A stretch of DNA of 64,000 nt from Escherichia phage Ec_MI-02: the sequence record OP856590.1. One strand, written 5' to 3'. The position numbers and the translations under genes were made by a program. Below the pieces are notes generated by a model. That model was given only the letters and a program-made list of their open reading frames with translations. It was not told the origin of the DNA and did not search any database. Positions 39,165 to 40,231 of this stretch are shown in pieces; position 1 is the first letter of the stretch; each line of letters starts with the position of its first letter.

Positions 39165-40025
39165 TTATACCGCCATCTTTCCTTTAATTGGCGGGTGAGA
39201 TACATAGTTGTTAAGAACAAAATCATGCGGCTTTGCGAATTGACTCAACCAAAATACCTGTGATTCTGTGTTCCATTCATCAAATTCATCTGGAAATTTT
39301 AATTGTAATTCGCATAAATCCATAGGTTCACGACGCAAAATTTCTTTACATTGTTCTACGTGATTCATATAGATATGAGTATTACCACCAGAAAATATCA
39401 AATCTCCAGGAATAAGATTACACATCTTAGCTACAATATGAACTAACGTAGCATATGATGCAATATTAAATGGAAGACCGAGGAAAACATCTACCGAACG
39501 TTGATACCACTGCAAATCCAAATAGCCATTACGCACATTAAATTGATAGAACATATGACAAGGTGGTAATGCCATTTGCTTGAGTTCAGCTGGATTCCAT
39601 GCTGAAACAATTTGACGTCTATCATTTGGCAGTTTTTTAATACGATCAACAACTTCTATAATTTGGTCTACACCACCAAAATCACGCCACTGTTTTCCAT
39701 AAATTGGACCAAGTTCACCACTATGGTATCCTAAATCTTTTGCTTGATTTTCGTAATTTTCATCCCAGACTGTTTTGCCTTGAATTAATGAATCATGTTG
39801 AATTAATCGCAAATCATTGACATTTGTGCTTCCCGATAAAAACCATATTAGCTCAGCAATGCAAGCTTTCCAGGCAAGCTTCTTAGTCGTTACTGCAGGA
39901 AAACCTTTAGTTAAATCCCAGCGTAATTTAGTACCGAACAAAGCAATTGTTCCTGTGCCTGTTCGGTCATCGGTTTCATAACCGTTTTCCAGGATATTTT
40001 TAATTAAAAATTGGTATTGTTTCAT
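39165..40025 (-). CDS. td: thymidylate synthase (continuous, no intron)
   Basis: 286 aa from ATG 40025 (MKQYQ...); ORF-track start is TTG; the ATG overlaps the upstream ORF stop as TAATG. Confidence 0.95.
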   Translation of the reverse strand: MKQYQFLIKNILENGYETDDRTGTGTIALFGTKLRWDLTKGFPAVTTKKLAWKACIAELIWFLSGSTNVNDLRLIQHDSLIQGKTVWDENYENQAKDLGYHSGELGPIYGKQWRDFGGVDQIIEVVDRIKKLPNDRRQIVSAWNPAELKQMALPPCHMFYQFNVRNGYLDLQWYQRSVDVFLGLPFNIASYATLVHIVAKMCNLIPGDLIFSGGNTHIYMNHVEQCKEILRREPMDLCELQLKFPDEFDEWNTESQVFWLSQFAKPHDFVLNNYVSHPPIKGKMAV

Positions 40026-40231
40026 TAGTTCATCCAAGAATATGTAGAAGGATATTTGGCAAAGTTAGGCTTATATCCTAATTTAACCATTTGTTTTGCT
40101 TTGCGAGTAAATCCTAAAGAACGCTCACCTTTAAGATATTGTTTTGGTGTCATAGGCCCTTGATGCATCTGCCGACAAATAAAAAGGGCCATAGCATTAG
40201 GAACATCCTTAACTTTTAATTTATTGCTCAT
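40025..40231 (-). CDS. small basic protein (68 aa) between frd and td
   Basis: ATG overlaps the frd stop (ATGA) and its stop overlaps the td ATG (TAATG); Lys-rich; codon usage matches neighbours. Confidence 0.6.

Follow-up and report, generated by a model that had tools for sequence, protein, structure and literature searches.

A small basic gene in the frd-td junction of T4-like phages is very likely a laterally exchanged cassette

The sequence analysed here, referred to as the window, is a 64,000-nucleotide segment of the Tequatrovirus genome of Escherichia phage Ec_MI-02 (OP856590.1), in which a 68-codon open reading frame, hereafter ORF B (or simply B), separates the frd and td genes. We consider it very likely that ORF B is a real gene that is exchanged laterally as a cassette, and we are somewhat inclined to accept the overall reading in which this exchanged cassette encodes a nucleic-acid-binding protein. 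The 501 nt around ORF B are 99.8% identical to the corresponding sequences of Shigella phage pSs-1 and several E. coli phages. Gene 32, ORFs similar to frd.3, frd.2 and frd.1, frd, ORF B, td, nrdA.2, nrdA.1 and nrdA are all encoded on the minus strand, an orientation that an earlier sequence-only reading of this DNA had left unstated for ORF B. The features of the locus are the following.

43073..42165, minus strand: gene 32.
40228..40812, minus strand: frd, dihydrofolate reductase, 194 aa (from the ORF list and the annotation of matching records).
40025..40231, minus strand: the 68-aa ORF B, PHROG 9550, encoding a small basic protein with three predicted helices (from the sequence, the PHROG match, dN/dS and an AF2 model).
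39165..40025, minus strand: td, thymidylate synthase, 286 aa from the ATG at 40025 (from the ORF list and the annotation of matching records).
40228..40233, minus strand: left junction AAATGA, comprising the frd stop TGA and the ORF B start ATG.
40228-40232, minus strand: left copy of the direct repeat AATGA, part of the left junction.
40022..40027, minus strand: right junction TAATGA, comprising the ORF B stop TAA and the td start ATG.
40022-40026, minus strand: right copy of the direct repeat AATGA, 206 nt from the left copy.

As determined from the sequence and the ORF list, ORF B runs from 40231 to 40025 (40231..40025, minus strand; 207 nt with the stop codon) and starts with the ATG at 40231..40229. 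At its left end, the frd stop codon TGA (40230..40228) shares the tetranucleotide ATGA (40231-40228) with this ATG; at its right end, the stop codon TAA (40027..40025) shares TAATG with the td ATG (40025..40023). Thus, same-strand stop/start overlaps are found at both ends of ORF B (40231-40228 and 40027-40023), as the sequence-only reading had described, and its translation of the ORF matches the sequence exactly. The same pattern of overlaps surrounds B in the phages Marfa, CIP9, 4S and JS10. The start of ORF B is embedded in the sequence GAATCAGTxTATAAATGA, which is exactly the upstream context of td in T4, and the td context in the window is supplied by the last ORF B codons, TGG ATG AAC TAA. 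No promoter-like or terminator-like sites were detected inside or at the ends of 40025-40231, and ORF B sits inside the frd-td message. Translation of B from the polycistronic frd-td-nrdA message would depend on stop/start coupling, through ATGA with frd and through TAATG with td; ribosomes would pass from frd through B to td, and the insertion would leave the expression of the two enzymes undisturbed. The encoded protein (7.9 kDa) was correctly characterized as basic, with 13 lysines and arginines versus 2 aspartates and glutamates, a pI of 10.3, a net charge of +11 and a basic N-terminal arm.

Two neighbours of these genes deserve mention in their own right. Directly upstream of frd, on the minus strand, lies an 81-aa ORF (40812-41057; PHROG 3183, denoted RB32ORF231c in T2 and T6) that overlaps the frd start and represents another uncharacterised small gene in the same string; no Pfam family was found for it. 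Downstream, the 95-aa nrdA.1 (DUF4326; 38597-38924, minus strand) is frameshifted in the window and split into the ORFs 38924..38751 (DUF4326 positions 2-45) and 38863..38597 (positions 46-81). The frameshift maps to a homopolymer at 38771-38777, where the minus strand has 7 A (T7 on the plus strand) and pSs-1 and T2 have 6; it is either a homopolymer sequencing error or the mark of a real pseudogene.

The length of ORF B alone is not beyond chance: shuffled versions of the window contain about 15 ATG-initiated ORFs of at least 68 aa per 64 kb. Such abundance of chance ORFs in AT-rich DNA is compatible with a spurious ORF, in which case the region would be a spacer that only spaces or couples frd and td. 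In the same vein, the first 60 nt of B are unusually conserved at the nucleotide level (78-88% identity across genera, above the rest of B or td), hinting at an RNA-level constraint. However, codon comparisons with Klebsiella phage Marfa, Enterobacter phage CIP9 and Serratia phage 4S yielded dN/dS ratios of 0.08-0.28 for ORF B, with the changes concentrated at third codon positions, and members of the family can still be recognised at identities as low as about 30%, in unrelated genomic surroundings. Moreover, a confident AF2 fold was obtained from an alignment of 32 sequences, and an Rfam search with ORF B produced no match above the threshold, only a single sub-threshold chance match. Given the exact fit between two same-strand genes, the conservation across genera and the purifying selection, ORF B is very likely a real protein-coding gene. 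On these sequence comparisons, the probability that it is a spurious ORF seems negligible, and the non-coding-spacer interpretation can be regarded as effectively excluded.

ORF B matches PHROG 9550 ('unknown function') end to end (residues 1-68 aligned to positions 1-68 of the 68-position profile; E = 1.3e-45). A tblastn search detected homologues in 237 of 50,697 phage records, and in 134 of these 237 the identity is at least 90%; all these highly similar copies are located at the frd-td junction and are almost always annotated as 'hypothetical protein'. Among the 568 records that match the junction, 135 contain ORF B, and the RefSeq carriers include pSs-1, ACG-C40, Sf21, PD112, IME339, EC121, fPS-65 and fPS-90. 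ORF B is therefore already known as an annotated hypothetical gene in about 135 GenBank records. The novelty implied by the sequence-only reading, which was to be judged against reference T-even genomes, does not survive these annotated same-junction copies, some of them in RefSeq Tequatrovirus species; it is nonetheless the case that T2, T4 and T6 all lack ORF B. We found no literature on ORF B or on RB32ORF229c, the other small ORF of this junction (see below). Records of the phages PYPS2T, P8 and Shinka label homologues of ORF B 'Flagellar biosynthesis protein' or 'DUF4858', and searches of Pfam and NCBIfam provided no support for either label. A profile search of all six-frame ORFs detected no paralogue of ORF B in the window. 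In the Dhakavirus records JS10 (EU863409; 1668-1874, locus numbering) and JS98 (NC_010105; 144234-144410), ORF B is unannotated.

Comparison of the junction among relatives revealed three states. In T4 (KJ477684) and e11/2, the region that spans 501 bp in the window spans 295 bp, which bears out the direct overlap of frd and td that the sequence-only reading had stated for T4. The classical description of these overlapping T4 genes is reportedly that of Purohit and Mathews, 1984. In e11/2, the sequence ...TATATAAATGAAACAATACC... is found at the junction, and the overlap of frd and td is ATGA. The T4 genes belong to the same operon as those of the window, lie on the same strand, and have the same AAATGA at the end of frd and the td start ATGAAACAATACC in common with it. 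However, whereas the two enzyme genes overlap directly in T4, the window contains between them 206 bp encoding a third protein, with a stop/start overlap of the T4 frd/td type used at both junctions. In the second state, represented by T2 and T6, the junction is occupied by a different, 115-aa ORF, RB32ORF229c (PHROG 1928; 1674-2086 in T2 and 5973-6320 in T6, locus numbering). This ORF is found in the same frd-td slot as B in T2, T6, RB14, RB32, AR1 and PP01, and is unrelated to B in sequence and length. Presence of ORF B is the third state.

An evenly spaced sample of the matching records included 53 classifiable rows from Tequatroviruses, of which about 31 had the T2-type ORF, roughly 14 had ORF B and about 4 were of the T4 type. 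Thus, the direct overlap of T4 is a minority state among the sampled Tequatroviruses. The direct frd/td junction is found also in Dhakavirus and apparently in Mosigvirus. The Marfa-, CIP9- and 4S-like phages hold both small genes, in the order frd - PHROG 1928 ORF(s) - B - td; the PHROG 1928 ORF of T2 is homologous to the ORFs that precede B in CIP9, Marfa and 4S, with two tandem paralogues in CIP9. Where B is at the junction, it always adjoins td and overlaps the td start. Collectively, B and the unrelated PHROG 1928 ORF are alternative occupants of a polymorphic frd-td slot in enterobacterial T4-like phages. The description of ORF B as a small gene inserted into a conserved junction is accurate as regards a small gene with the overlaps kept and overstated as regards the conserved junction, the T4 state being that of a minority.

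The T2 insert with the PHROG 1928 ORF is flanked by a 9-bp direct repeat, TAAATGAAA, and its deletion would restore the T4 junction. This ORF is set off by spacers of 20 nt and 45 nt, with a TATAAT-like box and an AAGG before td, so that td is probably not coupled there.

Compared to T4-type genomes, the insert in the window measures exactly 206 bp, with a copy of AATGA at either end; deletion between the AATGA copies yields exactly the frd/td ATGA overlap of T4, as seen in the comparison with e11/2 and MX01. To some extent, the AATGA repeat follows inevitably from the presence of two overlapping stop/start junctions. In Dhakavirus JS10, B fills a 203-bp 'gap' that separates frd from td. The JS10 cassette differs from that of the window at 5 of 206 positions (97.6% identity; 94-100% per 50 nt), versus 57-90% per 50 nt and about 78% overall for the flanks. 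The flanks of JS10 are 88-100% identical to those of MX01, a Dhakavirus with the direct frd/td overlap and no cassette. The switch in identity occurs at most 6 nt from the left ATGA and, on the right, inside a stretch of 28 nt over which JS10, MX01 and the window do not differ. Because the affinity of JS10 switches at the ends of the cassette, the alignments can be taken to show that the cassette moved laterally between genera as a precisely bounded module with breakpoints at its ends. For at least this one lineage, the earlier notion of an insertion finds a counterpart in a discrete insertion or transfer.

In the simplest scenario we envisage, one homologous crossover would have occurred in the conserved 5' end of td, and the other end would have been joined via the microhomology of about 6 nt, AAATGA. 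Gain and loss of the cassette would proceed by recombination at the short junction repeats, with selection keeping only those events that preserve frd termination and td initiation. Like B, the PeSL modules involve a small accessory ORF exchanged between T4-type genomes at a fixed site. However, PeSL cassettes have a promoter and a stem-loop, whereas the ends of cassette B have no promoter-like or stem-loop element: the early promoter and stem-loop expected at the borders of a PeSL-type cassette were not found at 40025-40231. The only repeat of cassette B is the 5-6-nt AATGA of the overlapping codons, and, unlike PeSL, the cassette lies inside a coupled enzyme operon. The shuffling of small ORFs via PeSL cassettes in the hyperplastic regions of T4-type genomes is said to have been described by Arbiol, Comeau, Krisch and colleagues in 2010.

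The synonymous divergence of B is lower than that of both flanking genes, with pS values of 0.53 versus 0.84 for td in the comparison with Marfa, and 0.60 versus 0.81 in a second comparison. This low divergence may reflect later lateral exchange or an RNA-level constraint at the coupled start. The evidence is two-sided: amino acid identity of 60-81% suggests that B has long been associated with the site upstream of td, whereas the lower pS points another way. In Tequatrovirus, the change may have gone in either direction, and the ancestor may have had B, the T2-type ORF, both or neither.

The td gene in the window is uninterrupted, without an intron; in T4 and T6, td contains a 1-kb group I intron with I-TevI; shortened introns occur in e11/2 and other phages. 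We considered a link between the state of the junction and the td intron, via co-conversion by I-TevI, and found no strict linkage. Among the relatives, the presence of B, of the T2-type ORF or of neither each occurs with an absent, a full (I-TevI) or a short td intron; since every combination of intron and junction occurs, the intron does not dictate the junction state.

The sequence-only reading had also raised the possibility that ORF B is a remnant of a mobile element. Such a degenerate remnant could be, for example, the DNA-binding tail that a homing endonuclease left behind at an old insertion site. The region is rich in homing elements, with mobE and the I-TevI-bearing td intron present in relatives, and PHROG 1928 appears in some records as a 'putative homing endonuclease'; 'glucose-1-phosphate adenylyltransferase' is another name given to it in the records. 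However, neither PHROG 1928 label is supported by Pfam or NCBIfam, and a Pfam search at E<=10 with B and 18 family members detected no GIY-YIG, HNH, NUMOD or IENR1 module, nor a match to any other family. Furthermore, the homologues are free-standing, full-length proteins of similar size (about 66-108 aa), none of which is fused to a nuclease, and the purifying selection extends over the whole length of B. We therefore regard such an origin as exceedingly improbable, a homing-endonuclease remnant being effectively ruled out by the domain, length and dN/dS evidence.

The family of B is tiny and restricted to phages. A HMMER scan of 1.84e9 representative proteins returned 11 matches, of which one, a eukaryotic repeat protein, is spurious and the others are small proteins on phage-like contigs; a profile search of 5.8e9 sequences produced 40 clusters at 90% identity. 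The members are 66-108 aa long, except for two 42-aa annotated fragments and a marginal 58-aa match. All 32 members of the family alignment (A4) are strongly basic (pI 9.7-10.6, net charge +7 to +17), and the near-invariant residues include K4, K6, R20 and K34. The conserved motifs are M-(S/KG)-N-K-x-K-V-x-x-V-P, (L/I)-(C/A)-R-x-x-H-Q, K-G-x-x-S-(L/F)-G-F and M-x-x-L-G-Y-K-P-x-Y-x-x-Y-P-S-x-Y-x-W-(M/F)-D. Among the distant homologues, gp235 of phAPEC8 (Phapecoctavirus) and its relatives (77 aa, 43% identity to B, equally basic) share with B the motifs M-K-G-N-K-x-K-V..VP, L-A/C-R..HQ, FGF and M..LGYKP.Y..YPS.Y.WFD, and differ in a longer loop between helices 1 and 2. In phAPEC8 and two uncultured large phages, the homologue sits in an array of small early genes away from td, and these phages share no neighbouring gene around it; neither PHROG 1928 nor any other neighbour was found to travel along with it.

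The sequence-only reading had reported no recognisable motif in the protein, and this held in database searches: no match to B or 18 family members was detected in Pfam at E<=10, none to the family in NCBIfam, and none in a sequence profile search of PDB at E<=10. Similarly, 0 of 18 members matched PADLOC, a library of defence rather than anti-defence proteins, at E<=1. Structure prediction had also been suggested there as a check: AF2 modelling from the 32-sequence alignment resulted in a three-helix model with a pLDDT of 86.7 and a pTM of 0.65, with helices at residues 13-24, 29-39 and 43-49. Given only 15 close sequences, AF2 had produced a poor model (pLDDT 62), for which a Foldseek search of PDB returned nothing. 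B does not conform to RHH repressors of the Arc/MetJ/CopG type and shows no demonstrable membership in the helix-turn-helix (homeodomain-like) class; the resemblances of B to RHH and homeodomain proteins are tentative leads without statistical support.

The product of B would be too small and featureless for an enzyme. Because the basic charge is conserved and the model consists of an arm plus three helices, we tentatively suggest that it could be a non-catalytic binder of nucleic acid (DNA or RNA) that acts early in infection, a possibility that the sequence-only reading had also raised and that we hold at somewhat less than even strength. The absence of B from T2, T4 and T6, together with the location of the distant homologues among early genes far from td, suggests that B would be a modulator that the phage can dispense with and that matters only under particular conditions, rather than a component of the thymidylate pathway. 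This functional assignment draws only on composition and fold class, and no sequence match of B to DNA- or RNA-binding families was found.

A basic protein such as B could equally bind an acidic host protein. Under this alternative, B would antagonise a host factor or defence system, its target being perhaps a defence effector or a factor associated with the nucleoid or with RNA polymerase, and would thereby widen the host range; this would explain the patchy, exchanged distribution of the gene. The sporadic presence of B in Tequatrovirus and Dhakavirus, with recent transfer between the genera, its dispensability in T2, T4 and T6, the restriction of the family to phages and the occurrence of homologues in unrelated large lytic phages of enterobacteria, in arrays of early genes, are all consistent with such a role. 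Nevertheless, B shows no similarity to any characterised protein, and the data point to no target, so we deem an antagonist unlikely, if worth serious consideration.

A closer link with the adjacent enzymes also has to be weighed, namely that B is an accessory of td or frd: a subunit, chaperone or translational regulator of Td, Frd or the dNTP-synthesising complex. B is located directly before td, with overlapping codons, in five lineages of Straboviridae (Tequatrovirus, Dhakavirus, Marfavirus, Kanagawavirus and Serratia phage 4S). Furthermore, judging by the amino acid identity across genera (81, 68 and 60% for B, 73-76% for td and 36-46% for frd), B seems to be as conserved as td and far more than frd. 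However, Td and Frd function without B in T4, T2 and T6, as they do in most Tequatroviruses, the homologues in Phapecoctavirus and uncultured phages are away from td, and T4-like phages generally conserve their gene order irrespective of function. An accessory role of this kind is accordingly improbable, and binding of nucleic acid remains the function that we tentatively prefer.

B is already present in the databases, and nothing here would surprise phage genomicists. The comparison does correct a reference-genome bias: the textbook overlap of T4 is the stripped-down arrangement, and most relatives carry one of two small genes. With its compact, confidently modelled orphan fold, B is a reasonable candidate for host-range, anti-defence and nucleic-acid-binding screens. 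A more far-reaching and rather doubtful possibility is that B represents a new structural class of small basic phage effectors without any fold relative, which could bind nucleic acid or counter defence, with the gene being a minimal 'plug-in' cassette. If this is true, the ATGA stop/start overlaps would be recombination sites that spread the B cassette between T4-like genera, and overlap junctions in phage operons would be general docking points for gene-sized insertions and clean deletions. In any case, JS10, MX01 and the window together provide an unusually clean natural case of a gene-sized module crossing phage genera at a stop/start overlap, and this case suggests how coupled operons may accept and shed cargo without losing the expression of the flanking enzymes.
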